Virus record (IMG/VR): IMGVR_UViG_2706794686_000017
Reading direction: 5' to 3' (one strand)
Source: a virus
Lineage: Duplodnaviria; Heunggongvirae; Uroviricota; Caudoviricetes
DNA length: 40,805 bases
The notes beneath the pieces were generated by a model. That model ran no database searches, was not told the DNA's origin, and worked only from the letters and a program-made list of their open reading frames with translations. A program made the position numbers and the translations under genes. Below, in pieces: positions 2,357 through 39,253 of the stretch (its first letter is position 1; every line of letters starts with the position of its first letter).

Positions 2357-5300
2357 TTAGCCACTTAACATTCCCCCATCACGTCGCATATTTAACAGAT
2401 TGCCCTGCACCCGCTGATCAACCATCCCCATAAGTGCTTTTATTGCCTGAGGGCCAATCTCTCCATTCTGGCCGTCATTTTGAATAGTGATTTGGTATAC
2501 AGGGGCATAGGTAATATCTCCGCCTCCATTACCACTTTTACTATTAATAGCTCTGACACCAAGAGAACCATCGGAAGTTCGTGTTAATGGCATAATGGCT
2601 TCCGGTCCAGCCTCACCAAAAACACCAGCCCCTTTTGCAAAAGCAAAAAATTGCGGGGAATCATAAATACCGTTCGAATACGTGCTCAATGACGGAGACT
2701 CATAAACACCGCCCTTTGCATTCGGAATAAATTTACTAATAGCACTCCCGATAGTTCCTAAAATCCCCCCAGAAGAACTGTTACTAATGCTGTCGAAAAT
2801 CCCAGTAATTGAAGCCTTTAATGCTATTCGACTAAGATCCGAAATCACGGAAGTAGCGAAAGAACGAAAATTTGCCTTGCCTGTCGTGACAAAATCACCC
2901 AGCGCATCGGTCATCCCATCAAACATCTGAGTCGTGGTTGATTTTATCTGCTCACTGATATCCTTAGTGTCATCCAGCCAGTTATTGAATCCCTGGGAGG
3001 CACCACTAACCCAGTCTCCTGCCTGAATATCGAGCTGCTCGTTTTTCTGTCTGACAATTTCTTTTTCCCGTTCCAGAGCATCATTCAGAGCCTGCATTTT
3101 CTCTTGAAAAACATGATCTGACATTCCACGGGATTTATCTGCATAGTCACGTTCAAGTTGCAGACGCTGATTGTTATATCCATGTTCAATCCGCAGTAAT
3201 TCCTGCTGGCGTTGCTGATTTTTATCGCCAACCCCATAACCAGCAATCTGAATATCATACCCCTGCTGACGATTATCAATCGAAGCCTGCAATGAATCAC
3301 GCCATGCTGTTATTTCGGCGGATTCCTTGATTAGCCTGTTATTTTTTTCAATCGCAACATTTTTCTCCATCAACGTGGTTATTTCTTCCCGGTGTAAGAG
3401 AAGCGATTTCTGATCCTGGGTTAATTTCGATGATGGTCGTGACTCTAGGTCGGCAATCCGCTGACGCCACTTAACCAGTTCCTGTTCAGAGGAACTTAAT
3501 TTAACGGTCAACTCAGCTTGTGAACTTAGTAACGCATTCTGTTGATTCAGATGATCAATCATTCGTTGGGCTGCATCATCAGAATAACCTTTCGCCTTTG
3601 GTTGCTTTGGATCTTTATAACGCTCATTTATTTGAGCGATAAGATTATTATATTCTTCCTTTGAATACTGATTCTTTAGCTTTTCCAGTTTTGCAAGTTC
3701 ACTAGCTCTCTGCTGCTCCCGGGTCTGATATTGTTTTGAAAAGGCATCTGCTCTCTGTCTGAGTTCAATTCCTTCCTGTTGTCGCTTGTTGTAATCGTTT
3801 ATTGATGAATTTAGTACGTCCTGAGCAATTTTTTCTGCTTGAAGTACGCCCAATTGCTGCTTTAATCGTGCCAGCCTTTTATTTTGAGCTCCGCCATCTC
3901 CAATGCCACCTAACCCGAAAACTCCGGGTCGGGTATTTTTTTCTATTTCATCAATTTGACGGAGAACATCTGAGATTTTTTGATCAAGGGAGGCCTCACG
4001 GCCAATATCCAGCATGGAATCCCATGCCCATTTTGCGGAGTCTGCGACAGCTTTCCATGCAGTCTCAAGATAACCAAGATTTTCTTTAATCTGGTTGGTG
4101 CGCTGGATCATTGAGGATGAGTATTCTTCTGTCGCAATGCGGGCGGCCTCCTGCTGGTTCCCTTCATCCTGTAGCGCCTTAATCTGGTTATAAGTCGCAA
4201 GTGTCAGAAAATGGTACTGATCATTAAGTTTTGATATGGCACTGACAGGATCCTTTGCAATTTCATTGAAGTCATTAACCAGTTGTTCGGTTGATATTCC
4301 TGTTACTTCGCTCGTTTTTACTATCGCTGTCGTCACTTGCTCCAGCGAACTGCTCGCTACCTTTCCCGAACGCACAAGCTGATTTAATACTGCCGCCGCA
4401 GCACCAGTTGTCGAATCAGCCGCATTCCCGGCACGTTGAGCTATATCGCCCAATTGCCCGCTGGTTGTCCCCAACTGATTTCCGGTAAGAATAAGAGATT
4501 TATTAAATTCGTCCTGCTCCTGAGAGCCTTTATAGTAAGCCAGTCCTAAGACCCCAACGGCTGCTGCGGCCAGGGTAAAAGGATTAATTAATCCCAGCAC
4601 ATAAGAACCTACACCTTTGATCGCCGGGCCAATCCCACCGAACATATCTTTTAGCTGGCCGCCCTGCTGCATTAACACCATAAATGGCGACTGACCAGTG
4701 GACAACCCAACAACAATATCCGTCATTTGTACAGGCAACATGCGCATAGCAAAAGCCGTTTGTTTTGCCGACATTCCGGTTTTGCTTAATTGTGATTGAG
4801 TAACCTCAAGCTCACTCCGCATAGCACGAAGTTTTCCAGAAAGCTCCTCATACATTTCAGGAGAAAGCATCCCCTTAGCTTTTGCTTCATTGAGCTGTTT
4901 CTGTTGTTCTACCAGACGATTAAAAGCAGTTCCGACAGGATCAAGTTGAGCAATCAGACGTTGCAAAGCAACAACCTGTTCATCATGCGCTTTTGCTGCT
5001 TCTCGCTCTGCCTGAGCCTCTCCGGTAAGCTCTCGCCGTGTTTCCTGTATTTTTCGGCTATAATTCTCAAACTGAGAACCATTTATTTTCCCGGATGCAA
5101 ACGCAGCATTAAGTTCATCATGCTGTTGTTCAAGATTTCTTAGCGCCGCAGCCAGAGGGTCGATCTTGTCCAGCATTCTTTGAAAGGCCTGAGCCTGCGC
5201 TTCCTGCTGGGCGGCAGCAAGTTTTCCGGCCTTCTCGGCTTCTCTCTGCGCTTGCGCAACCCCGCTCAATTCCTCTGTGGTTTCATTAAGTTTACGGACA

Positions 5301-17445: not shown

Positions 17446-18246
17446 ATTCCTCCTCCCCGCCATGCATGATCTCCACCATGCGCTGCGTCATTCGGACAAA
17501 TCCATTTTCAATAGCCTGCTGATAATCAATGATCACCAGCGCCGACTCCTCGAAAAGGCACTGAATTTCAGCGGGGGCATGAGCGTAATAGTCCGCAATT
17601 CTGCTGAAATTAAACACCGTGTGACGTTCTGCTGCACACAGGAGGAATTTCTCAATATCAGGATCAAGGGACGCCGAACGTATCCGGCTGATCAGCTCCT
17701 GAGTTTTCGTATCGTCGTACAGTTCACTGATATCCGGTTTACCGCCTGACGGCTCATAAACAGGCGTATCAATTTTCGTCGTATACGGCTCCTCCTCATT
17801 TCCTGTACCGGGCAAAACATCCGTCAACAGTTCATCAATTTCTGCCGGGATGAAGCCTGTCAGGGAGACATCAAAATCAGCATTGATTAGGTCCGACAGC
17901 TCCATCCGCNNNNNNNNNNNNNNNNNNNNNNNNNNNNNNNNNNNNNNNNNNNNNNNNNNNNNNNNNNNNNNNNNNNNNNNNNNNNNNNNNNNNNNNNNNN
18001 NNNNNNNNNNNNNNNNNNNNNNNNNNNNNNNNNNNNNNNNNNNNNNNNNNNNNNNNNNNNNNNNNNNNNNNNNNNNNNNNNNNNNNNNNNNNNNNNNNNN
18101 NNNNNNNNNNNNNNNNNNNNNNNNNNNNNNNNNNNNNNNNNNNNNNNNNNNNNNNNNNNNNNNNNNNNNNNGTGCGTCCTGGCGTTGTGCGCATACGGTG
18201 ACAATTCTTGTAATGGGCGATAGACTATCTTTAATTTCTCGCTCAT
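17438..18246 (-). CDS. ParB N-terminal domain (ParB-like nuclease) protein, interrupted by N-run 17910..18171
   Basis: N-terminus MSEKLKIVYRPLQELSPYAHNARTH is typical of ParB/Srx-like domains; acidic C-terminal part follows the N-run. Confidence 0.55.
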
Positions 18247-18383: not shown

Positions 18384-19841
18384 TTAGGAGCGCCAAAAAA
18401 AACCTGAAAACAATATAATAACAGGATAAATTTCAAGGCGACCAAGAATCATAGCTATGCACATTAAATATTTTGCAATGTCATTAAGCACTCCGAATGA
18501 CGATGCAGTAGCCCCAAAACCTAATCCCATATTATTAATACATGCAGCCACTGTTGCAAATGATGTAAGAAAATCATATCCCATACCATTTAACACCAGT
18601 ATAAAAAACACCGTGAAGAGAGTATAAAGAAAAAAGAAACTCCATACAGACCTCATTACACGATCTGTAACTATCTTCCCTCCTACATTTACACTCAACA
18701 ACGCTCTGGGATGAGAAAGCTGATTTATCTCGTGTTTGCTTTGTTTGAAAAGTATAAGAAATCGAAGTGACTTAATTCCACCACAGGTTGAACCTATACA
18801 TCCCCCAAAGAAACTTGACAACAGCAAAAACACTATCGTGTGCGTGGGCCAGTTTGCATAATCCTGCGTAGCTAAACCATTATCAGTGAGCATGGAGCTG
18901 GCAAGAAAAAACGAATGAATAAAACTTCCATGCAAGTCATACATACCTATATGCCAGACCTGGAAAGAGGTAACAATGATCACCCCTAAGGCTATTAACA
19001 GAAAGAAACGAAGTTCAATATCTCTGATTAAAGGTTTTATCGTTTTTCTGCTAATAACAATATACCAAAGAGTGAAGTTGAAAGCCGATAGCAGGGAAAA
19101 AGAACCAGCCACCAGCTCAACCAAATAGTTATTAAAATATCCGATACTCTCGCTATGAGTTGAGAAACCACCAAGCGAAACTGTGGAAATCCCGTGACAA
19201 ATAGCATCAAACAAAGGCATTCCTGCAAGTCTATAACAGACAATACAAGCAATACCTAATAAAGAATAAGTTATCCACAGTGTCCGTGACGTATCGGCCA
19301 GGCGGGGAGTGAGTTTGTCATCCTTAAATGGCCCCGGCATTTCTGACTGATAAAGCTTTGCACCACCAATACCCAATAATGGCAATACTGCAACCGCCAG
19401 AACAATAACTCCTAAACCACCTATAAAATTTAACTGTGACCGATAGTACAAATATGCCCGAGGTAATGAACTAACATCATCAATTACAGTTGCTCCTGTT
19501 GTTGTTATTCCAGAAACCCCTTCAAACAGAGCATCAATGAACGTTAAATTAAGTTCTGAGTCAATCCATAAAGGGAATGCACTAATAACAGAAAACAAAA
19601 TCCAAAACATTACAATTATAATAAACCCATCACGGGTACGTAATTGAATGCCAGATTTCTTAGTTGTATACCACGCTCCGCCACCAATGCAAAAAAATAT
19701 AACGAAAGTTATAAAGAAAACGAACAGGCTTTTTTCTTTATAAAACAATGCTACAACCATTGGTGGCAACATTGAAAGACTATAGAGCCAAACCAGGAAC
19801 CCACACATATGAGTAACAACTCTTACATGAGATGTATTCAT
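18384..19841 (-). CDS. trkG: Trk-system potassium uptake protein TrkG (TrkH/KtrB family)
   Basis: 485 aa from MNTSHVRVVTHMCGFLVWLY; polytopic membrane protein with repeated pore-loop glycine motifs; matches the Rac-prophage-encoded TrkG as recalled. Confidence 0.85.
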   Translation of the reverse strand: MNTSHVRVVTHMCGFLVWLYSLSMLPPMVVALFYKEKSLFVFFITFVIFFCIGGGAWYTTKKSGIQLRTRDGFIIIVMFWILFSVISAFPLWIDSELNLTFIDALFEGVSGITTTGATVIDDVSSLPRAYLYYRSQLNFIGGLGVIVLAVAVLPLLGIGGAKLYQSEMPGPFKDDKLTPRLADTSRTLWITYSLLGIACIVCYRLAGMPLFDAICHGISTVSLGGFSTHSESIGYFNNYLVELVAGSFSLLSAFNFTLWYIVISRKTIKPLIRDIELRFFLLIALGVIIVTSFQVWHIGMYDLHGSFIHSFFLASSMLTDNGLATQDYANWPTHTIVFLLLSSFFGGCIGSTCGGIKSLRFLILFKQSKHEINQLSHPRALLSVNVGGKIVTDRVMRSVWSFFFLYTLFTVFFILVLNGMGYDFLTSFATVAACINNMGLGFGATASSFGVLNDIAKYLMCIAMILGRLEIYPVIILFSGFFWRS

Positions 19842-19978
19842 ATCTAAATATTCTTTCAATTATAACCACCTTGCTGCAATATTATGATTATACTGTATAA
19901 AATTTAACTCCTCTTAGATCTTACTTCACTGTTCCTTATGAAACAATCATCAAAATGAATCATATTGTAGTTAAGATT

Positions 19979-20443: not shown

Positions 20444-21357
20444 TGCTGACCCCACAAACAGATTTCACGCTCAATCTCACGACGAGTCATGAGACCTTTC
20501 CATTGCTTACCGCCAGCATATGTCCAGCGACGTAGCTGATCACATGCGCCTTTGATATCGCCCTGGTTTATTTTGCGAAGAAGCGTCGATGTTCTGAAAT
20601 TGCCAGCACCCACGTTGTAAACGAATGAGTAAAGAGCGCCGCGCGTTGTTTCCGGTATATCGACTTTGATGTACGGGTTAATTTGTCTGGCGACAGTGGC
20701 AAGGTCTTTATTCAAGAGTGTTTTGCATTCTGCTTTGGTATACGTTTTACCGAGCATGATGTCTTTTCCTGTATGCCCGTGACATACAGTCCATACACCA
20801 ACAATATCTTTGTATGGTATGTAGCTGACACCTTCCAGACCATCGTTACCACTTGGGCCAGTGATTAACACTGATGCTATAGCAATTGCTCCGCCACCAA
20901 TAGCAGCAGCAACNCCTTTCCATTGCTTACCGCCAGCATATGTCCAGCGACGTAGCTGATCACATGCGCCTTTGATATCGCCCTGGTTTATTTTGCGAAG
21001 AAGCGTCGATGTTCTGAAATTGCCAGCGCCCACGTTGTAAACGAACGAGTAAAGAGCGCCGCGCGTTGTTTCCGGTATATCGACTTTGATGTACGGGTTA
21101 ATTTGTCTGGCGACAGTGGCAAGGTCTTTATTCAAGAGTGTTTTGCATTCTGCTTTGGTATACGTTTTACCGAGCATGATGTCTTTTCCTGTATGCCCGT
21201 GACATACAGTCCATACACCAATGATATCTTTGTATGGTATGTAGCTGACACCTTCCAGACCATCGTTACCACTTGGGCCAGTGATTAACACTGATGCTAT
21301 AGCAATTGCTCCGCCACCAATAGCAGCAGCAACGACTTTTCGTAATGATGGAGGCAT
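20440..21357 (-). CDS. Endolysin (lysozyme with N-terminal signal-anchor-release-like segment); ORF carries an in-frame tandem duplication at the single N (20914)
   Basis: [44 protein letters not shown]... followed by a second near-identical 140-codon copy; an unduplicated gene would encode about 165 aa. Confidence 0.75.
20495..21333. repeat. Tandem direct repeat, 2 x about 420 bp (20495..20913 and 20915..21333) joined at N 20914
   Basis: The two copies differ at only three positions seen by eye (gccagcaccc vs gccagcgccc; acgaatgagt vs acgaacgagt; caacaatatc vs caatgatatc). Confidence 0.85.
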
Positions 21358-21572
21358 TATTCACCTCTCGCAGCCTTGCGCTTATCTTCTTTAATCTTGA
21401 AATAAAGGTTTGTCAGGTACGTCAGCAGGCCAAATACCAGACTACCCAGCACACCGATTGCAGCCCACTGTGACGGAGTTACTCTATCGAGCAACTGTAA
21501 AAACCAGTAGCCAGCACTGCCTGCGGAGGTGCCGTAGGCAATGCCTGTTGAAATTTTGTCCATGGATTTCAT
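21357..21572 (-). CDS. Holin (class II, EssD/EssQ-like)
   Basis: 71 aa from [31 protein letters not shown]...; two hydrophobic segments and a charged C-terminus; immediately upstream of the endolysin. Confidence 0.8.
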
Positions 21573-21823
21573 AGCCTCACCTCCGCACGGAACGGATGGC
21601 ATAGTTATTATGTGTAGGCTTTCAGACACATCAATCAGAGCCTTAATTGATATATATGCTGGAGACGATGCAATATAAAAAGCTCGCCGTAGCGAGCTAA
21701 TAAAATGTATTTCTCTGATATTATGTTTATTTGTATTAGCTCAGACTTGACATCACAGGTTTCGTATATAGAACATCATCAAATCTGTCAGTTTGCTATG
21801 AATGAGATATAGTAATTGAAGAG

Positions 21824-22219
21824 CTAACCTCGCATGTCAAAGCCAGATTTCTGAAAATCTCTGTAGACTTCCGGATTGTTGAAGGCCGGAAATTTGGCTT
21901 TATGAGCTGCGGACTTTATCGCTTCGCAATAGGCTTTATCACCGTTACTGGTAGATATTTTTAACGCCGTGCCATCCTGAGAGAATTCCATATGCAACCT
22001 GCATTTTTTCCCTTTCCAGTTATGCGGCTCATCAAGTTTGGCATTAATTGCAGCTCTGATTCCCCGCGCTTGCGCCCCCCATTCATCCTGATCATCCCAG
22101 CGTCCTGAACTGCAACTACCTGTAGCAGTAGTTTTGTGGCAATCTGAAGGGTGTAAAGGTGTGCATCCCGCAACAAAACCGACCCAAAAAGTCAACATAA
22201 CGATTTTCTTTAATCCCAC
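21824..22219 (-). CDS. Lipoprotein with TolA C-terminal (domain III)-like fold, paralogue 1
   Basis: GTG start with GAGGAG ribosome-binding site; signal peptide and lipobox VAGC; C-terminal GKKCRLHMEFSQDGTALKISTSNGDKAYCEAIKSAAHKAKFPAFNNPEVYRDFQ aligns with paralogue 2 and with TolA domain III as recalled. Confidence 0.55.
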   Translation of the reverse strand: MGLKKIVMLTFWVGFVAGCTPLHPSDCHKTTATGSCSSGRWDDQDEWGAQARGIRAAINAKLDEPHNWKGKKCRLHMEFSQDGTALKISTSNGDKAYCEAIKSAAHKAKFPAFNNPEVYRDFQKSGFDMRG

Positions 22220-22369
22220 TTCTTGCTCCTCAATCCATTAAAATCTCAGCAATAGTAGTTGTTACGTCCGCCACTGGCTCAGAGCTGACTATCCGCTAAA
22301 TTTAGCTCAGTGCCGTAGCTGTGTCAGAACAAACCTAAGCCGAAACCGTTTATTACAAAACAATAAATA

Positions 22370-22798
22370 TCAGGGTTTAAAATCCAGCACCCCATTTTGA
22401 AATACTTTATATACTTCCGGCGAAGGGGGGGCAGGTATATCAGCATTCTTTATCGCATTCATCGCTTCACGACATAAATCGAGGTCTCCACTTTCTCTTT
22501 TAACCTCCAGTAGAAGGCCATTCGGGGCCATATGCATTCTCAGTGTACACTCTTTTCCTGAATACTTACTCGCATCCCCGAACTGTTTTTCGATGGCGCT
22601 CTTGATTTGATGGGCATACAGACGGATATCCTCACTAACATCAGAAGTACGTTCAGATGAACTCACATACTGTGTCTCTATTGCTTTATCGGAGTAATAT
22701 GATGTACGGTCATGATAATTTGTCGATACAGCATCAGTGCACCCGATAATAATCCCACTAATAATCAACGTAAGAATTGATGCGCTACGAAAACCCAT
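22370..22798 (-). CDS. Lipoprotein with TolA C-terminal (domain III)-like domain, paralogue 2
   Basis: Signal peptide and lipobox IIGC; C-terminus HQIKSAIEKQFGDASKYSGKECTLRMHMAPNGLLLEVKRESGDLDLCREAMNAIKNADIPAPPSPEVYKVFQNGVLDFKP closely resembles the E. coli TolA C-terminus as recalled. Confidence 0.65.
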   Translation of the reverse strand: MGFRSASILTLIISGIIIGCTDAVSTNYHDRTSYYSDKAIETQYVSSSERTSDVSEDIRLYAHQIKSAIEKQFGDASKYSGKECTLRMHMAPNGLLLEVKRESGDLDLCREAMNAIKNADIPAPPSPEVYKVFQNGVLDFKP

Positions 22799-22857: not shown

Positions 22858-23431
22858 ACAGCGAATCAGATCAAATAAAACGCACATTTGTTAACATTTA
22901 CACAAAGTCTGCGTGGGATATTCTGAAAGAATATCCATAATGTGGAGAGANNNNNNNNNNNNNNNNNNNNNNNNNNNNNNNNNNNNNNNNNNNNNNNNNN
23001 NNNNNNNNNNNNNNNNNNNNNNNNNNNNNNNNNNNNNNNNNNNNNNNNNNNNNNNNNNNNNNNNNNNNNNNNNNNNNNNNNNNNNNNNNNNNNNNNNNNN
23101 NNNNNGGTCATCATCAGATGACTGGAAAAAAGGAAAACAAAAAATACTCATCATACAGTTTTGATTGCAGGGATGAGCCTGCTATGCACAATATGCAGAA
23201 TATAAGCAAGATAANNNNNNNNNNNNNNNNNNNNNNNNNNNNNNNNNNNNNNNNNATCAGGATAACGCATCATCAGCCCCTGCCAAGAAATATCAAAACT
23301 CCCGCCAGCAATGTGTTATCACAATATTGTAAAAAAAACACAGCACCGAAACTATAACTGGTCTCTGTTATAATTTGGAGCAGAAAGACCAGTTGCCCAA
23401 CTAGCAGCATTCTCCCCTGCTTTCCTGACGT

Positions 23432-23538: not shown

Positions 23539-23857
23539 TCAAGCCATTTTCTCAGCAAATGATTCACGCATGGGAATATATAGGGCATACTCAGCAACAG
23601 CTAACCAATTAGCAATCCGTTTTTCGCATGTGCTAAAACACCACTCTGGGTGTGCATCATTTAGCAATTCAGCCATTTTGCGCTTAGTCATCCCCCGCCC
23701 TTCATAGCGTTGCCGGAGAATGCAAATCAATCCTGGATGCTCTGCCAGCACCTCACTTATGACTCGATCAATACATAACGCCTCTGCATCAGTACAATGC
23801 GCCAGCCAGCTCTTTTGCTTGCCGTTGATCATCTCTCGCAAAAACGCTTCCAGCTCN
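23539..23857 (-). CDS. Late antiterminator Q-like protein, C-terminal part (N-terminus masked by N-run)
   Basis: Visible C-terminal 105 aa (...CTDAEALCIDRVISEVLAEHPGLICILRQRYEGRGMTKRKMAELLNDAHPEWCFSTCEKR...); position immediately upstream of tR'-like terminator and lysis genes. Confidence 0.5.
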
Positions 23858-24456
23858 NNNNNNNNNNNNNNNNNNNNNNNNNNNNNNNNNNNNNNNNNNN
23901 NNNNNNNNNNNNNNNNNNNNNNNNNNNNNNNNNNNNNNNNNNNNNNNNNNNNNNNNNNNNNNNNNNNNNNNNNNNNNNNNNNNNNNNNNNNNNNNNNNNN
24001 NNNNNNNNNNNNNNNNNNNNNNNNNNNNNNNNNNNNNNNNNNNNNNNNNNNNNNNNNNNNNNNNNNNNNNNNNNNNNNNNNNNNNNNNNNNNNNNNNNNN
24101 NNNNNNNNNNNNNNNNNNNNNNNNNNNNNNNNNNNNNNNNNNNNNNNNNNNNNNNNNNNNNNNNNNNNNNNNNNNNNNNNNNNNNNNNNNNNNAGCATGC
24201 ANNNNNNNNNNNNNNNNNNNNNNNNNNNNNNNNNNNNNNNNNNNNNNNNNNNNNNNNNNNNNNNNNNNNNNNNNNNNNNNNNNNNNNNNNNNNNNNNNNN
24301 NNNNNNNNNNNNNNNNNNNNNNNNNNNNNNNNNNNNNNNNNNNNNNNNNNNNNNNNNNNNNNNNNNNNNNNNNNNNNNNNNNNNNNNNNNNNNNNNNNNN
24401 NNNNNNNNNNNNNNNNNNNNNNNNNNNNNNNNNNNNNNNNNNNNNNNNNNNNNNNN

Positions 24457-25036
24457 GTGCGGCCACATTTTCAACTTCCTCCTGAGAGGAGAATTTACGG
24501 AACAGAATCCAGTTCCACAGCACATTCAGTACAGATTTATAAACCTGCTGAAACTCGACTTCGTCCATATTCGCAAAAGCGATGGATTTTGCCCGACGCC
24601 CACGGCTACCGTCCGGATAAATATGCTCGGTGTAAAATCCGGCCTGAATGGTTACCCACTCGCGGAAAGCCTCAAACGACTTTAGCAACGCCGTATCCCG
24701 GGTTCTACGAGTCGCAACGGTGTTAAGGTATTGCTCTGCGGCATCACTCAGGGCTGGCGTGTGTTCCCGACCAACTGATTCGCACAGGTAATCAACGAAA
24801 CCAGACAGCAGTTCTCGTTCGCGAGGCGTGATCGCCCCACCGACCGGAGTCCAGTAATCGAATCCCAGTTGCAGGAGTTTGAAAAAACGCTTGTGGAATG
24901 CGTAGTTACGCACACGCTTAAAGTCTGCGTGTATCCACTCACCTATTTTGATTTGATGCAGAAAATCGCAACTCTCCGGCGTCGCCGGGAGAAGTAAACC
25001 AGAAGAGGTTTGTTTGACCAGTTGTATATGCGCCAT
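24457..25036 (-). CDS. nin-region phage protein of unknown function, N-terminal part (rest masked by N-run)
   Basis: ORF starting MAHIQLVKQTSSGLLLPATPESCDFLHQIKIGEWIHADFKRVRNYAFHKRFF...; runs into the N-run at 24456. Confidence 0.5.
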
Positions 25037-25316
25037 TTCTCAATCTCTCGATGGCGCAGCGCAGCAGATGCCAGTTGTTCAGGCTGACGAATAAAGTATA
25101 AATAAACTGGCTATGGTGTAAAGCCCCACATAGCATGAACAAACACTACATATCAAATAGCTGGTACAAGGATAGAAATACGACACTTATTATTAAAAAC
25201 GATTAGATAAATTACATTTTAATGTTATGCAAAAGTTCTTTTTTATCATAACATTTCAATAAAAGCATTACAGATGCAATCATCCCGTCATCATCAATTA
25301 TTTAAGGTGGTTAAAC

Positions 25317-25403
25317 ATGGAAAATAACAAGTTCGCACATCTCGCTCCTTTTTTATCCGTAATCCTTTTCGCTTGTTGTTTTATATGGGCATTATTTTTA
25401 TAA
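25317..25403 (+). CDS. Hypothetical 28-aa hydrophobic peptide
   Basis: AAGGTGG ribosome-binding site 6 nt before ATG; MENNKFAHLAPFLSVILFACCFIWALFL then TAA; lies in an AT-rich intergenic stretch. Confidence 0.3.
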   Translation: MENNKFAHLAPFLSVILFACCFIWALFL

Positions 25404-25811
25404 AGTAGCCACATGATAAGTTGCTGGAATCATATTTCCCACTCAAGTCATTAACATTTGATAAGATATATCTAAAAGGACGCCTTTACATTATTTATGC
25501 GTATATAATTTATTTATATACACAGTAAAGGTATCCTGGGAAAATATTTATCGTTAAAAAATACATCATAAATAATTAAGCTGAAATTTCAGAACACAAC
25601 TAATACACACAATAAGGTTCAGTAACAGTAATCTATGTGGACTACATCGAGATTTTTTGATTAAACTTTAATAACTTATTCCTAACACACAGAATGCATA
25701 AACTAAAAGTAAAACAAATAGTTATACGAAAAACAACCATATTTATTCTATCTTCTCCTCTAATCAACATATCAATTATGTGTTTCATAACAGCTTGACA
25801 TAACCCTCCAA

Positions 25812-25834
25812 AAGATGCATTTTTAATGCATGTT
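25812..25834 (+). promoter_or_regulatory. NsrR-like operator (11-1-11 inverted repeat) upstream of the YeaR-like gene
   Basis: AAGATGCATTT-t-TAATGCATGTT; the half-sites match each other at 9 of 11 positions and resemble the NsrR consensus as recalled; a TTGACA lies at 25795..25800. Confidence 0.5.
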
Positions 25835-25849
25835 TTGGAGGAGGTGGTT

Positions 25850-26188
25850 ATGACACACAAGAGAATTCCTAAAGATTGGGTAATCAAACGCTCAACTCCG
25901 TTCTTCACAAAAGAGAACGTACCTTCAGCGTTATTAACACATCATAATACAGCAGCAGGTGTTTTTGGGCAGTTGTGCGTAATGGAAGGCACTGTAACAT
26001 ATTATGGTTTTACTGATGAGAATGCTACTGAACCGGAGATAAAAGTAGTCATTAATGCTGGCGCTTTTGCAACAAGCCCACCACAATACTGGCACCGTGT
26101 TGAACTAAGCGATGATGCTCAGTTTAATATTAACTTTTGGGTCGCTCCAGACTTTTCGGGCGAAAAAGTCTATAGCACCAAAAAATAG
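25850..26188 (+). CDS. YeaR-like DUF1971-family protein
   Basis: GGAGGAGG ribosome-binding site then ATG; 112 aa MTHKRIPKDWVIKRSTPFFTKENVPSALLTHHNTAAGVFGQLCVMEGTVTYYGF...; only plus-strand gene in the late/nin region. Confidence 0.5.
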   Translation: MTHKRIPKDWVIKRSTPFFTKENVPSALLTHHNTAAGVFGQLCVMEGTVTYYGFTDENATEPEIKVVINAGAFATSPPQYWHRVELSDDAQFNINFWVAPDFSGEKVYSTKK

Positions 26189-26217
26189 ATGATCATATTA
26201 AAAATGCTTTAACAGTC

Positions 26218-26255
26218 AGACCCGGCAGGGCTATCCCCGACGGGTCTCATTTTTG
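26218..26255 (+). terminator. Rho-independent terminator of the YeaR-like gene
   Basis: AGACCCG...CGGGTCT stem (7 bp) followed by CATTTTTG, about 30 nt after the stop codon. Confidence 0.6.
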
Positions 26256-26808
26256 TAAATATATTGGTTCTACATTGACAGGAGACTTCAACCATAAGAA
26301 GTAATCTGAATACTTGAGCAATAAATTTACTTAAGATTAATGAGCGCACCTTGCCGGACAAAGATAAACCAAGGTAACACCTTTTTTCTAGCCAGTATGT
26401 AATCAATCAGAAAGCCGCTCCATAAGAACAACAGCAAGACAATAAATTGCCATTACAGCCGCAATAGCCAGCGCACATTTGAGAACCAGCACGACAACCC
26501 CCTGTATTAGACGCACACCAGTCCTGATAAATATGAGGCTGTCTCGTCAGTGATTCAATACAACTATTGGGTATAGTTTCTGTGATTTTATTCTGTAGAA
26601 ATGGAACACAACAACCAGTCACCACCAGCACTTCCTTAAATGCTCTAAGTCAGAAACAAGCCAACATTTTAGTCCGCTTTGAGCGATCTGCAGACATTGC
26701 TAGCAGCCTTCTGTGTGAATTCTCAGGGAGCAGGTCGGCATAGCATCACGTTGAGGCTCTTACCCTACTTGTTCACACCAACCCTAACTCCACAGACTGA
26801 TTCATAAA

Positions 26809-27810
26809 TTAGTAATCTGCGTGTTTCGCACTTTTCAGAAATGCTTTCATATTTTCATTAGGTCGCTCAATTTCGAAGTTACTTCCATATAACTCTTGTA
26901 ATTTTGGCCATAACTTACTTAATAACCCTCTCCTGCGATAAAATGGATGTATCCAAACGGTAGATAGGTACGGAGAATTTGCATTTGAATTGTTTATTGT
27001 GACCAGCCCAACTAAACATTGTCGATAACCACTATTATCCATTGATTGTATTTCTTCGACGAATGGATACGCGATTACATCAGTCCAACCATGATCGGTT
27101 GTATCCCATTGCATTCCGTCATGACATTCCTTCGACTGATAGCGGCGTAAAGCTACACACGCGAGCTTTTGCCAATCTGGAGAATTAATTGTGATCTCTT
27201 CATCGTATGACGCGCCTATTGGAGCGGGTATTGGTCTGATTAATCCAGCATGGCATTCATCATAGAACTTCATGTTTCCCTCAGAAACGTTGTGTACGTT
27301 GGGTTGCTCCATGTGTGCGCCATTCAAAAATAGCTCTGATAGTAGTGTATCTACACTGTAATCTTTATTGATTATTGTCGGCTTAGAGTTTTTCTTATTA
27401 AGGCCGCGAGTAACGATTTTTTGATCAATGTTAACAACATGGAATAATCCGTCGGGGAGGCTAGCGAACCACGATGGGGCATCGGACCAGAATAGCATGC
27501 CTTTTGTACTTCTTAAGAGTTTAATTAAGTTAATACAAGCTTCTTCACTAGTCTTGCCGTTGATGCGAAGTATGTTAGGACTAAAGTAATATTCATCCAT
27601 ATCAGGGAATGCAGCTTCGCAAAACTCCTGTACATAATTTAGCACCTGGATTCTACAGAGATCATCATAGCTGGTAATAACTAAGGGGGTATCTTCATTA
27701 CTATTATGATTATCAATAATGCAATCTATAGCGAGACTTACTGCTTTGCGTATCACTTCAGTTGAATCTAACGACTCTAAAAATTTTGTCTTTCGTGTGC
27801 GAATATCCAT
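26809..27810 (-). CDS. Hypothetical protein (333 aa) with C-terminal GNAT-like acyltransferase-fold signature; second gene of AT-rich cargo operon
   Basis: AT-rich ORF 15 nt downstream of the preceding gene; C-terminal LVGLVTINNSNANSPYLSTVWIHPFYRRRGLLSKLW...NENMKAFLKSAKHADY resembles GNAT motifs A and B; N-terminal 230 aa unassigned. Confidence 0.45.
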   Translation of the reverse strand: MDIRTRKTKFLESLDSTEVIRKAVSLAIDCIIDNHNSNEDTPLVITSYDDLCRIQVLNYVQEFCEAAFPDMDEYYFSPNILRINGKTSEEACINLIKLLRSTKGMLFWSDAPSWFASLPDGLFHVVNIDQKIVTRGLNKKNSKPTIINKDYSVDTLLSELFLNGAHMEQPNVHNVSEGNMKFYDECHAGLIRPIPAPIGASYDEEITINSPDWQKLACVALRRYQSKECHDGMQWDTTDHGWTDVIAYPFVEEIQSMDNSGYRQCLVGLVTINNSNANSPYLSTVWIHPFYRRRGLLSKLWPKLQELYGSNFEIERPNENMKAFLKSAKHADY

Positions 27811-27825
27811 GTATGACCTGCGCTA

Positions 27826-28848
27826 TTAAAATTCATGAATGAACGGTTTGTCATCTGGTTGCAAAATGGTGGTTTTATTCGTTGCTACATTTAAACTGTT
27901 GTAGAGCATAATTGCCAGGTTCGATGCATTTTCAATCAGCGTTTCAAGATCCTGGTCTGTAATCACTACGAGGTTCCCTTCTTTATCCTTTCCACCACGA
28001 TGCACTAAGTGATTTCGATTGAGGGTTGCCAATTCAATAGCTTCTATCGGACAGTCTTTTTGTACTTTTATATCGAATGTAGCTTCATAGCGGTCGATTA
28101 CCTTTTTAGTGCTATGCCAGCTTGCACTGATCAAGTGTTCCTTGATTGACCTGATTAGCTCTCCCCTAATTTTCTCGATGGGTTCACCCTTGAAAGGCAA
28201 CGCAGCAATATCTTTGCTTACTTTAAATTCAGTCTTACCTTTTTCTATACAATTGGCTATGTAGACATCATCTTTCTCTATAGAATTAATGAATAGCTCA
28301 ACATAAAGCGTTTCCAAAGCTGTAATAACATTCGTGTAGAGCAAACTAAGCAAGTGGTTTTTTTGCTGTTGTTCAGTTTTATCTTTTGCAAGTTTTTTTA
28401 TTTTATCGATATTATCAATGAATTTTAAATACGGATTACCGGAAGACGTTACAGCGTCGTAGATATCATCATCGTACCAATCATCTATATTATTTGAGTT
28501 TCCAGACCAGTCAAAACATTGTGTTTGTAATTCATCTACTAATTCCTCAATATACTCAGATTTAACATATTGACCGAAGATGGATTGTAGTTCTTCGCTC
28601 GCATCATACGGCCCGCCATATATGTAAGCATAGCCACCTTCTCTACTTTCATACGGACAAGCATTTGCCGGATCTTCAAAGTTTTCAAAGAACCAGTTTT
28701 TCATTACTTCGAGTTGATCTTTTTTGCTTATGTATTTTAAAGATTTTAGTGGAACTTTCTTTCCATTAACCTCGAAAACAATTTTCACGATGTAACGCTC
28801 CCTTGTATCAATTGCGCAACTATTATACCACAGCGAAATACAGGGCAT
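27826..28848 (-). CDS. Hypothetical protein (340 aa) with HEPN-like R-x4-H motif (possible Abi-like RNase); first gene of AT-rich cargo operon
   Basis: ATG at 28848 preceded by AAGGAGG at ideal spacing; AT-rich codon usage; LATLNRNHLVHRGG near the C-terminus fits the HEPN R-[NHQ]-x3-H pattern. Confidence 0.45.
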   Translation of the reverse strand: MPCISLWYNSCAIDTRERYIVKIVFEVNGKKVPLKSLKYISKKDQLEVMKNWFFENFEDPANACPYESREGGYAYIYGGPYDASEELQSIFGQYVKSEYIEELVDELQTQCFDWSGNSNNIDDWYDDDIYDAVTSSGNPYLKFIDNIDKIKKLAKDKTEQQQKNHLLSLLYTNVITALETLYVELFINSIEKDDVYIANCIEKGKTEFKVSKDIAALPFKGEPIEKIRGELIRSIKEHLISASWHSTKKVIDRYEATFDIKVQKDCPIEAIELATLNRNHLVHRGGKDKEGNLVVITDQDLETLIENASNLAIMLYNSLNVATNKTTILQPDDKPFIHEF

Positions 28849-28876
28849 AACCTGCCTCCTTAAACTAACATACCAT

Positions 28877-28902
28877 GAGCCAGCAATGTCCGCTATTGGC
28901 AC
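28877..28902 (-). promoter_or_regulatory. 8-bp inverted repeat (TGTCCGCT / AGCGGACA, 10-nt spacer) in the leader of the cargo operon
   Basis: Perfect inverted repeat between a TTGACA hexamer and the AAGGAGG ribosome-binding site of the 27826..28848 gene. Confidence 0.35.
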
Positions 28903-28986
28903 AAAGCGGACAACCACGCTAGCTCTCCCCTGTGCCAGAAAAATGTCAATTTACATATGAACTAATGCTCTTTGATCTAGTAACGT

Positions 28987-34737: not shown

Positions 34738-35042
34738 TGACTNNNNNNNNNNNNNNNNNNNNNNNNNNNNNNNNNNNNNNNNNNNNNNNNNNNNNNNNNN
34801 NNNNNNNNNNNNNNNNNNNNNNNNNNNNNNNNNNNNNNNNNNNNNNNNNNNNNNNNNNNNNNNNNNNNNNNNNNNNNNNNNNNNNNNNNNNNNNNNNNNN
34901 NNNNNNNNNNNNNNNNNNNNNNNNNNNNNNNNNNNNNNNNNNNNNNNNNNNNNNNNNNNNNNNNNNNNNNNNNNNNNNNNNNNNNNNNNNNNNNNNNNNN
35001 NNNNNNNNNNNNNNNNNNNNNNNNNNNNNNNNNNNNNNNNNN

Positions 35043-35318
35043 NNGATTACCAATTATGAAGCCACTGTTGTAACTACCGATGACATTGTTCACGAGGTGA
35101 ATCTGGAAGGAAAGCGCATTGGCTACGTAATTAAAACAGAAAATAAAGAAACCCCATTCACTGTGGTTGATATCGATGGTCCATCAGGCAACGTAAAAAC
35201 ACTTGATGAAGGTGTCAAAAAAATGTGCCTGGTGCATATCGGAAAGAATCTGCCCGCAGAAAAAAAAGCCGAATTTCTGGCAACTCTAATTGCAATGAAA
35301 TTAAAAGGTGAAATCTGA
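35043..35318 (+). CDS. racC: RacC (start codon partly inside N-run 34743..35044)
   Basis: (M)ITNYEATVVTTDDIVHEVNLEGKRIGYVIKTENKETPFTVVDIDGPSGNVKTLDEGVKKMCLVHIGKNLPAEKKAEFLATLIAMKLKGEI; the preceding gene (ydaE position, ATGGTGATGACT at 34731) is masked. Confidence 0.8.
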   Translation, partial: XITNYEATVVTTDDIVHEVNLEGKRIGYVIKTENKETPFTVVDIDGPSGNVKTLDEGVKKMCLVHIGKNLPAEKKAEFLATLIAMKLKGEI

Positions 35319-39064: not shown

Positions 39065-39253
39065 ATGTATAAAATTACCGCCACTATTGAAAAGGAAGGT
39101 GGCACTCCTACTAACTGGACAAGATATTCAAAATCTAAACTAACGAAATCAGAATGCGAAAAAATGCTCTCAGGTAAAAAAGAAGCAGGCGTTTCCAGAG
39201 AGCAGAAAGTAAAACTGATAAATTTTAATTGCGAGAAACTTCAGTCCTCGTGA
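39065..39253 (+). CDS. ydaC: Rac protein YdaC
   Basis: MYKITATIEKEGGTPTNWTRYSKSKLTKSECEKMLSGKKEAGVSREQKVKLINFNCEKLQSS; directly downstream of ralR. Confidence 0.7.
   Translation: MYKITATIEKEGGTPTNWTRYSKSKLTKSECEKMLSGKKEAGVSREQKVKLINFNCEKLQSS

Follow-up and report, generated by a model that had tools for sequence, protein, structure and literature searches.

The window analysed here is the whole 40,805-nucleotide (nt) Caudoviricetes record IMGVR_UViG_2706794686_000017, and at 25795-26254 it holds a plus-strand cassette that is probably a phage moron: a DUF1971 gene of the same type as Salmonella STM1808, placed under the host repressor NsrR and giving lysogens a stress protein inducible by nitric oxide (NO). 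This reading builds on observations of the family and subfamily of the protein, the quality and conservation of the operator, selection on the open reading frame (ORF), the prophage context and the distribution of the cassette, from which we infer NsrR binding, the transcription start, NO induction and the phenotype of the prophage copy. The parts of the cassette are as follows.

25795-25800, plus strand: -35 hexamer TTGACA, read from the sequence, 11 nt ahead of the operator
25812-25834, no strand: predicted NsrR operator AAGATGCATTT-T-TAATGCATGTT, 23 base pairs (bp) in an 11-1-11 layout, 28.1 bits on the NsrR matrix
25818-25827, plus strand: candidate -10, either CATTTT at 25818-25823 (17-bp spacer) or TTTAAT at 25822-25827 (21-bp spacer), placed by spacing and by orthologues
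25837-25847, plus strand: Shine-Dalgarno sequence GGAGGAGGTGG, read from the sequence, with its core ending 5-8 nt ahead of the ATG
25850-26188, plus strand: coding sequence (CDS) of 112 amino acids (aa) plus stop, DUF1971 protein of the STM1808/3DL3 subfamily, RefSeq WP_000149055.1, assigned by Pfam and identity
26218-26254, plus strand: intrinsic terminator, stem AGACCCG/CGGGUCU with an inner GGG/CCC helix, then CA-UUUUU (hairpin 26218-26247, tail 26248-26254)

The product of the gene is a cupin-type DUF1971 protein. Membership of this family had been proposed in a preliminary description of the DNA and is upheld by Pfam PF09313 (DUF1971), which matches at 92 bits against a cut-off of 23.1 (E = 2.3e-26), with residues 14-94 spanning positions 1-80 of the 80-position model. 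Sequence comparison identifies Salmonella STM1808 and the Vibrio fischeri protein in PDB entry 3DL3, but not YeaR, as orthologues of the protein. Identity is 79% over the full length to the Salmonella DUF1971 orthologue, 79-82% to the orthologues of Kluyvera, Citrobacter and Klebsiella, and ~80% to 3DL3 (E = 3.5e-59), which aligns residue for residue over positions 1-111, so that the fold can be taken from this solved structure. Identity to Escherichia coli K-12 YeaR is 41% (YeaR structure 3BB6 at E = 1.6e-24), and YeaR orthology was rejected on this value, on the lack of a yoaG (DUF1869) partner and on a differing operator position. The earlier label of YeaR-like thus stands for the family and falls for orthology, and given 79-82% versus 41% identity the proper chromosomal comparator is Salmonella STM1808 and not yeaR-yoaG. 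Residues H32 and H82 are invariant in an alignment of 13 sequences that includes YeaR; STM1808 is reportedly a zinc metalloprotein in which these two histidines are required for zinc binding and NO resistance.

A genome scan returned 329 relatives, and the orthologue comparisons use the best 80 of these, which are 75-82% identical (73-82% in the subfamily comparison); their sources are Kluyvera, Leclercia, Citrobacter, Klebsiella, Raoultella, Salmonella, Vibrio, Aliivibrio, Photobacterium, Shewanella and others. The gene order in Salmonella is fadR-nhaB-dsbB-DUF1971, and since dsbB is STM1807 (PMC4143323) the orthologue that follows it is STM1808. Passages in PMC7527575 and PMC7082413 that cite Karlinsey et al. 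2012 (Mol Microbiol 85:1179) place STM1808 in the NsrR regulon and ascribe to it a role in virulence. The RefSeq name 'TehB family protein' is misleading because the window protein has no S-adenosylmethionine (SAM)-dependent methyltransferase domain: identity as a TehB methyltransferase was rejected with an NCBIfam TehB score of 49 bits against a cut-off of 303, the match being confined to model positions 11-106 of 289. The N-terminal domain of Haemophilus TehB (PDB 3M70) is itself DUF1971, followed there by the methyltransferase domain that the window protein lacks, and 3DL3 (119 aa) is deposited as 'tellurite resistance protein B'. A mechanical ORF list begins the gene at an in-frame ATG at 25826, inside the inverted repeat, and some databases call this 120-aa form; the protein is taken as 112 aa because all orthologues align from the methionine at 25850, which has the ribosome-binding site.

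The evidence for NsrR lies in the inverted repeat upstream of the gene. An 11-1-11 repeat resembling the NsrR operator had been noted there, with the suggestion that it be scored against an NsrR matrix; the repeat is present at 25812-25834, its arms complementary at 9 of 11 positions, and its centre lies 27 nt ahead of the ATG. The symmetric weight matrix was derived from the 26 distinct NsrR sites of E. coli CFT073 in Table 4 of a chromatin immunoprecipitation sequencing study (PMC5320621). On this matrix the repeat scores 28.1 bits, with half-sites of 15.7 and 12.2 bits, and ranks 2 of 27 when added to the CFT073 set, behind only ytfE (31.6 bits; 30.9 leave-one-out) and ahead of hcp (26.2), yeaR (24.2) and hmp (20.5). 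Per position, this score has an exact tail probability of 3e-11 against E. coli base composition and of 1.6e-9 against a composition of 30% guanine plus cytosine (GC); the next best position in the window reaches 14.2 bits, and 1000 shuffles of the surrounding AT-rich 800 bp gave at most 18.9 bits. The operator begins 11 nt past a perfect and invariant -35, and its overlap with the core promoter depends on the assigned -10, both candidate hexamers for which fall within it. Known NsrR targets place the site over the core promoter, and at hmp it begins inside the -10. Other regulators were also considered for the window gene: co-regulation by Fur was rejected, with 11 of 19 Fur-box matches and no better than shuffles, and no NarL 7-2-7 site was evident by eye in the window, where no scoring for it was made.

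The operator recurs ahead of chromosomal orthologues. The 300 nt upstream of each of the 80 were scanned with the same matrix, using 1739 windows from the same loci as the control (99th percentile 12.2 bits), and in 52 of the 80 loci a site reaching 20 bits or more has its centre 27-55 nt ahead of the ATG (27-39 nt in the enterobacterial loci). These 52 comprise all enterobacterial loci but one, plus one Photobacterium; the exception, from Leclercia (L011), retains an indel-disrupted copy of 12.5 bits at the same position. Between genera the rest of the upstream sequence shows no relationship, but the layout is common: a -35 (TTGACA, TTTACA or TTGACG), 11 nt, then the operator, a spacing shared exactly by the window and by the Kluyvera (TTTACA) and Klebsiella (TTGACG) orthologues. 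Operator positions 7-12 form a -10-like hexamer, which is TATTTT, TATATT or CATATT in the orthologues and CATTTT in the window. This shared layout argues that the promoter-operator unit is ancestral to the gene in Enterobacteriaceae and is carried by the phage copy.

Some chromosomal orthologues have in addition a Fur-box-like element, GATAATGAGATTTATTATC (14-17 of 19 consensus matches), ~75-90 nt ahead of the ATG and just upstream of the -35. It occurs in Kluyvera, Leclercia, Pseudescherichia and Buttiauxella (L005-L026) and in two Photobacterium loci (L057 and L077), and suggests possible dual control by Fur and NsrR in these chromosomal lineages.

The remaining parts of the cassette are consistent with an autonomous transcription unit, as the preliminary description had held. 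The strong ribosome-binding site that it reported is present as GGAGGAGGTGG, and 25842-25849 is nearly invariant across prophage alleles, leading to the start codon ATG at 25850; the CDS ends with TAG at 26186-26188. The intrinsic terminator, also reported earlier, begins 30 nt past the stop codon, with no plus-strand ORF beyond it, and is recovered by RNA folding (minimum free energy -17.7 kcal/mol, z = -2.2); a consensus terminator scan missed the hairpin because an internal loop interrupts its stem. The A and B alleles have an identical terminator sequence, and the D allele departs from it by 1 nt. Promoter activity is predicted from the invariant -35 and the architecture of the orthologues. 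A MerR-type long-spacer promoter (TTGACA-21-TATAAT, as read in the B and C alleles) was rejected on account of the palindrome being centred on the -10 and not in the spacer.

The cassette recurs in E. coli prophages and is under constraint. It occurs in 466 of 5426 complete E. coli genomes (~9%), on Rac-type or lambdoid prophages, as well as in Shigella (L004) and, at 97-100% identity, on 35 IMG/VR viral contigs. NCTC10444, NCTC9066 and LD39-1 are among the carrier strains. Among 50,697 GenBank phage records, three have a DUF1971 homologue, all of them isolated phages with the cassette (vB_EcoS-666R9, vB_EcoS-673R7 and vB_EcoS-613R10). The Rac prophage of K-12 lacks it, and CFT073, the one strain with NsrR chromatin immunoprecipitation sequencing, presumably lacks the gene as well, since the site is missing from its published table of NsrR sites (PMC5320621, Table 4). 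The 41 aligned prophage copies represent ~13 promoter alleles, and in all 41 the -35 region TTGACATAAC is invariant and an NsrR-type site is present, at 17.9-28.9 bits. The right half-site is nearly fixed while the left varies (AAGATG, AACACG, AAGGTG, AAGGAG), and the weakest alleles combine one strong and one weak half-site, as does the proven target hmp. The ORF is intact in the 8 CDS haplotypes and is under purifying selection, with a ratio of nonsynonymous to synonymous substitution rates (dN/dS) of 0.09-0.20 among alleles. A hypervariable operator was considered and rejected, nucleotide diversity being about the same in the core (0.095) as in the upstream spacer (0.095). No recent donor was found, the highest nucleotide identity to any chromosomal orthologue being 75%; this ceiling, together with GC at third codon positions (GC3) ameliorated to 34%, indicates that the phage lineage is old. 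Inactivation happens occasionally: in E. coli ET734 (NZ_CP100922.1, hit H72) an IS1 insertion sequence lies in the DUF1971 gene, which is annotated in two pieces.

The window is a full-length Rac-type prophage with E. coli as host and ttcA as integration site. Its right end carries the integrase, xis, recET, ralR and RalA small RNA, and its left the structural genes, on the minus strand. The preliminary description took the gene for a self-contained unit and for the only plus-strand gene in a minus-strand run; both points are confirmed by RefSeq annotation of the E. coli NCTC10444 prophage, 99.9% identical to the window, in which, as in near-identical prophages, the DUF1971 gene is the sole plus-strand feature from the tail genes to the cI-like repressor, across ~32 kb of minus-strand genes. 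The cassette is oriented head-on within the early-right operon, between the replication and cargo genes and the nin/Q module. In all contexts examined it adjoins a DUF1367-DUF1364-DUF1133 (Q antiterminator) module by way of a conserved spacer of 27-32% GC, and its neighbours on the other side vary among prophages, being two genes without assigned function in the window, QueH in one prophage, hok/gef with KilA-N in another and non-phage genes in a remnant. GC is 41% in the DUF1971 gene and ~52% in the adjacent nin genes. The cassette thus lies between modules, is present in some relatives and absent from others, has its own terminator and an invariant -35, is atypical in base composition and is on the opposite strand, as a moron would be, and its expression from the repressed prophage is predicted.

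The proposed mechanism is as follows. In a lysogen free of nitrosative stress, the iron-sulfur (Fe-S) repressor NsrR of the host would bind 25812-25834, and because the operator covers the -10 and the predicted start of the TTGACA promoter, at ~25828-25834, RNA polymerase would be excluded. Nitrosylation of the NsrR cluster by NO, with release of the repressor, is established for NsrR. Upon such release from the prophage operator a monocistronic mRNA of ~400 nt would be made, translated from the strong Shine-Dalgarno sequence and stopped at 26218-26254, and this terminator would keep antisense transcription out of the adjoining cargo genes. The protein would then, if it acts like STM1808, improve growth under nitrosative stress.

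Several observations weigh against this interpretation. In most orthologues from Vibrionaceae and other marine bacteria the 300 nt upstream contain no NsrR-type site, and the coupling of this gene to NsrR is therefore not general. Within the prophage alleles the left half-site is degraded, to 8.5 bits in the commonest B allele and 5.4 bits in the D allele. The promoter itself is imperfect: a strict sigma-70 consensus scan calls no plus-strand promoter, the -10 of the window (CATTTT) is weak by consensus, and the commonest alleles have CATTTA at the 17-bp spacing, with a perfect TATAAT only at an unworkable 21-bp spacing. For the weak -10 and the silent scan, the cassette promoter may be weak or may need an activator. 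The part played by the window protein in NO resistance is itself a prediction by analogy. Lastly, the inverted repeat is longer than the NsrR model alone explains, since it runs 7 bp past the NsrR core on each side to form the following element.

25805-25841, no strand: 37-bp quasi-palindrome CCTCCAAAAGATGCATT-TTT-AATGCATGTTTTGGAGG, with its right arm overlapping the first Shine-Dalgarno GGAGG

The extension is the basis of the alternative that the palindrome acts mainly as an RNA fold-back element, instead of or besides being a repressor site, which we regard as unlikely. Under this alternative, transcripts starting upstream of 25805 would fold CCUCCAAAA against UUUUGGAGG and hide the ribosome-binding site, so that only transcripts starting inside the palindrome, at the regulated promoter, would be translated; such inhibition of read-through activation by fold-back is the logic of IS10. 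The geometry is suggestive, as the first GGAGG of the ribosome-binding site is formed by the right arm and the RNA has a folding energy of -25.1 kcal/mol (z = -5.3); the predicted transcription start, however, falls within the palindrome. In a comparison of 12 alleles, both partners have changed at three pairs lying beyond the core or on its margin (CCTCC/GGAGG, CCTCA/TGAGG and, in L093 and L098, CATCA/TGATG), paired cells amount to 85.8% versus 83.2% in shuffles (2/500), and the CCTC motif upstream of the operator is kept in all allele classes but one (CATC, L093/L098). Yet the covariation score is unexceptional, being reached by 34 of 500 shuffles among sequences that are close relatives, 2-3 pairs of the outer stem are lost in the C, D and E alleles, and there is no upstream plus-strand promoter or gene as a source of read-through. 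Template-switch mutagenesis at quasi-palindromes would also yield concerted two-arm changes without selection. Moreover, the extended palindromes of chromosomal relatives (Citrobacter) exclude the Shine-Dalgarno sequence. A Citrobacter/Yokenella clade has a 41-bp palindrome with the compensatory variants GGCATTTAT/ATAAATGCC, GGCATCTAT/ATAGATGCC and GGCACCTAT/ATAGGTGCC. Chromosomal palindromes with concerted arms are found in L027, L030, L050, L061 and L074, around locus position 3960. The statistics are modest, and the extension has several candidate explanations, namely template-switch mutagenesis, extra NsrR half-site-like elements, a fold-back insulator of the ribosome-binding site or a cruciform.

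A more elaborate possibility, somewhat more doubtful still, would tie the palindrome to the lytic programme: an NsrR-gated convergent promoter, or NsrR acting as a roadblock on the 37-bp palindrome, would make Q read-through NO-dependent and couple the lysis decision of Rac-type phages to host NO, with the extension serving in addition as an IS10-like fold-back insulator. About equally improbable is that the cassette is silent or decaying, silenced by H-NS or with a weak promoter never usefully expressed, and kept by linkage to nin/Q. The weak -10 and the lack of a called canonical promoter fit this, as do the flanks of 27-32% GC that are typical of H-NS targets, the many carriers that are degraded prophages and the IS1-interrupted gene of ET734. 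Against it stand the low dN/dS and the intact haplotypes, the invariance of the -35 and the retention of an NsrR-type site in every aligned copy, and the persistence of the ancestral promoter-operator architecture in a phage lineage as old as the nucleotide identity and GC3 imply. By far the least probable alternative is that the repeat is the operator of another regulator (a phage repressor, IscR or another Rrf2 protein), its likeness to NsrR sites being coincidental. Palindromic operators are abundant in phage genomes, the sites of Rrf2-family proteins are alike and the left half-site varies among alleles; however, the matrix match is second only to ytfE, the motif recurs at the same place ahead of chromosomal, non-phage orthologues from more than 10 genera of enterobacteria, and the Salmonella orthologue is a published NsrR target according to the citing passages named above. 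Nor is the repeat a repeated phage operator, as no other site in the 40.8-kb prophage exceeds 14.2 bits. A moron probably controlled by NsrR is the reading retained here.

The surroundings of the cassette deserve description in their own right, starting with the spacer between it and the nin/Q module.

25037-25794, no strand: AT-rich non-coding spacer of 27-32% GC, from the composition profile, with no ORF annotated in near-identical RefSeq records

This 760-bp spacer travels with the cassette and the nin/Q module. Its only promoter-like matches are weak ones on the minus strand, no Rfam family matches it, and it is a likely H-NS target. Across 24900-26900 the only Rfam match was a chance one of mir-616 to a hairpin (E = 0.13, far under the gathering threshold). 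On the other side the cassette is adjoined by two minus-strand cargo genes, 26809-27810 and 27826-28917, each with a match below threshold, to GNAT at the C-terminus in one gene and to HEPN/RES N-terminal domain 1 in the other. Since QueH or hok/gef with KilA-N occupy this slot in other prophages, it is a hot spot for variable cargo, and the two genes in 26809-28917 are possibly a defence or toxin system, with PADLOC defence annotation of the DUF1971 gene and its two neighbours returning no matches. In L084 (NZ_CP019250.1) the cassette and nin/Q module lie in a prophage remnant, abutting a major facilitator superfamily (MFS) transporter, a gamma-glutamylcyclotransferase and a LysR regulator; in remnants of this type the cassette has thus outlived the prophage.

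Farther away, the RalA antitoxin small RNA of the RalR/RalA type I toxin-antitoxin system, which is also present in the Rac prophage of K-12, matches Rfam RF02694 at 225 bits (39071-39249, minus strand). Between the lysis and Q modules, ~18384-19859 and 21357-22798 (both minus strand) correspond in the annotation of a near-identical record to trkG, a potassium transporter, and two genes with TolA-like C-terminal domains, all further cargo of non-phage type. It should be noted that the window contains masked runs of N totalling 1616 bases (986-1248, 17910-18171, 22951-23105, 23215-23255, 23857-24193, 24202-24456 and 34743-35044), which cover most of the DUF1367/DUF1364/Q-module region left of the cassette, and ORFs listed there are artefacts of masking.

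Among characterised systems, Salmonella enterica STM1808 is the closest to the window gene. Beyond protein identity, the two agree in size (113 versus 112 aa), in the conserved H32 and H82 and in being monocistronic with an NsrR-type 11-1-11 site near the ATG, which in subsp. diarizonae scores 21.0 bits. They differ in location, STM1808 being fixed in the chromosome downstream of dsbB and the window gene being carried by a prophage, in an operator centre 39 nt ahead of the ATG in subsp. diarizonae as opposed to 27 nt, in a nucleotide identity of only ~70-75% (with the low GC3 of the window gene) and in the palindrome extension, which reaches the Shine-Dalgarno sequence in the window, unlike in STM1808. 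E. coli yeaR-yoaG, an operon repressed by NsrR and activated by NarL, likewise combines a DUF1971 domain with an upstream NsrR site on the same matrix. There, yeaR is co-transcribed with yoaG and has its operator centre 78 nt ahead of the ATG, whereas in the window a terminator comes straight after the gene and the operator centre is much closer. In CFT073, yeaR is strongly induced under nitrate or NO conditions (PMC5320621).

As a type of element, the cassette is a moron wired to a host regulon and so is of a known kind. Prophage morons under host regulators include lambda bor/lom, the Fur-controlled stx1 and the PhoPQ-controlled sodCI of Gifsy-2. Like these, the window cassette is an autonomous unit of promoter, gene and terminator with atypical composition and a predicted connection to a host stress regulon, and its expression in the lysogen, as expected for such morons, would be independent of the lytic programme. 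It differs in its regulator, NsrR, and in its DUF1971 cargo, a combination for which no published case was found, and in a promoter-operator unit that looks inherited from a chromosomal ancestor and not evolved in phage. A literature search found no publication describing this cassette, a link between prophage DUF1971 genes and NsrR, or the RefSeq accessions.

The analysis corrects the RefSeq label of 'TehB family protein' and offers, in the prophage copies, a natural allelic series of operators spanning 17.9-28.9 bits that is useful for studies of NsrR binding. The NsrR regulon was defined in K-12 and CFT073, of which K-12 lacks this gene and CFT073 appears to lack it. Should the proposed control hold, E. 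coli lineages without a chromosomal STM1808-type gene would gain through lysogeny an extra member of the NsrR regulon, a simple case of lysogenic conversion for nitrosative-stress tolerance. The captured gene would have retained its ancestral operator through a long residence in phage, and a temperate phage would thereby extend the NO stress regulon of its host with the orthologue of a Salmonella virulence contributor.

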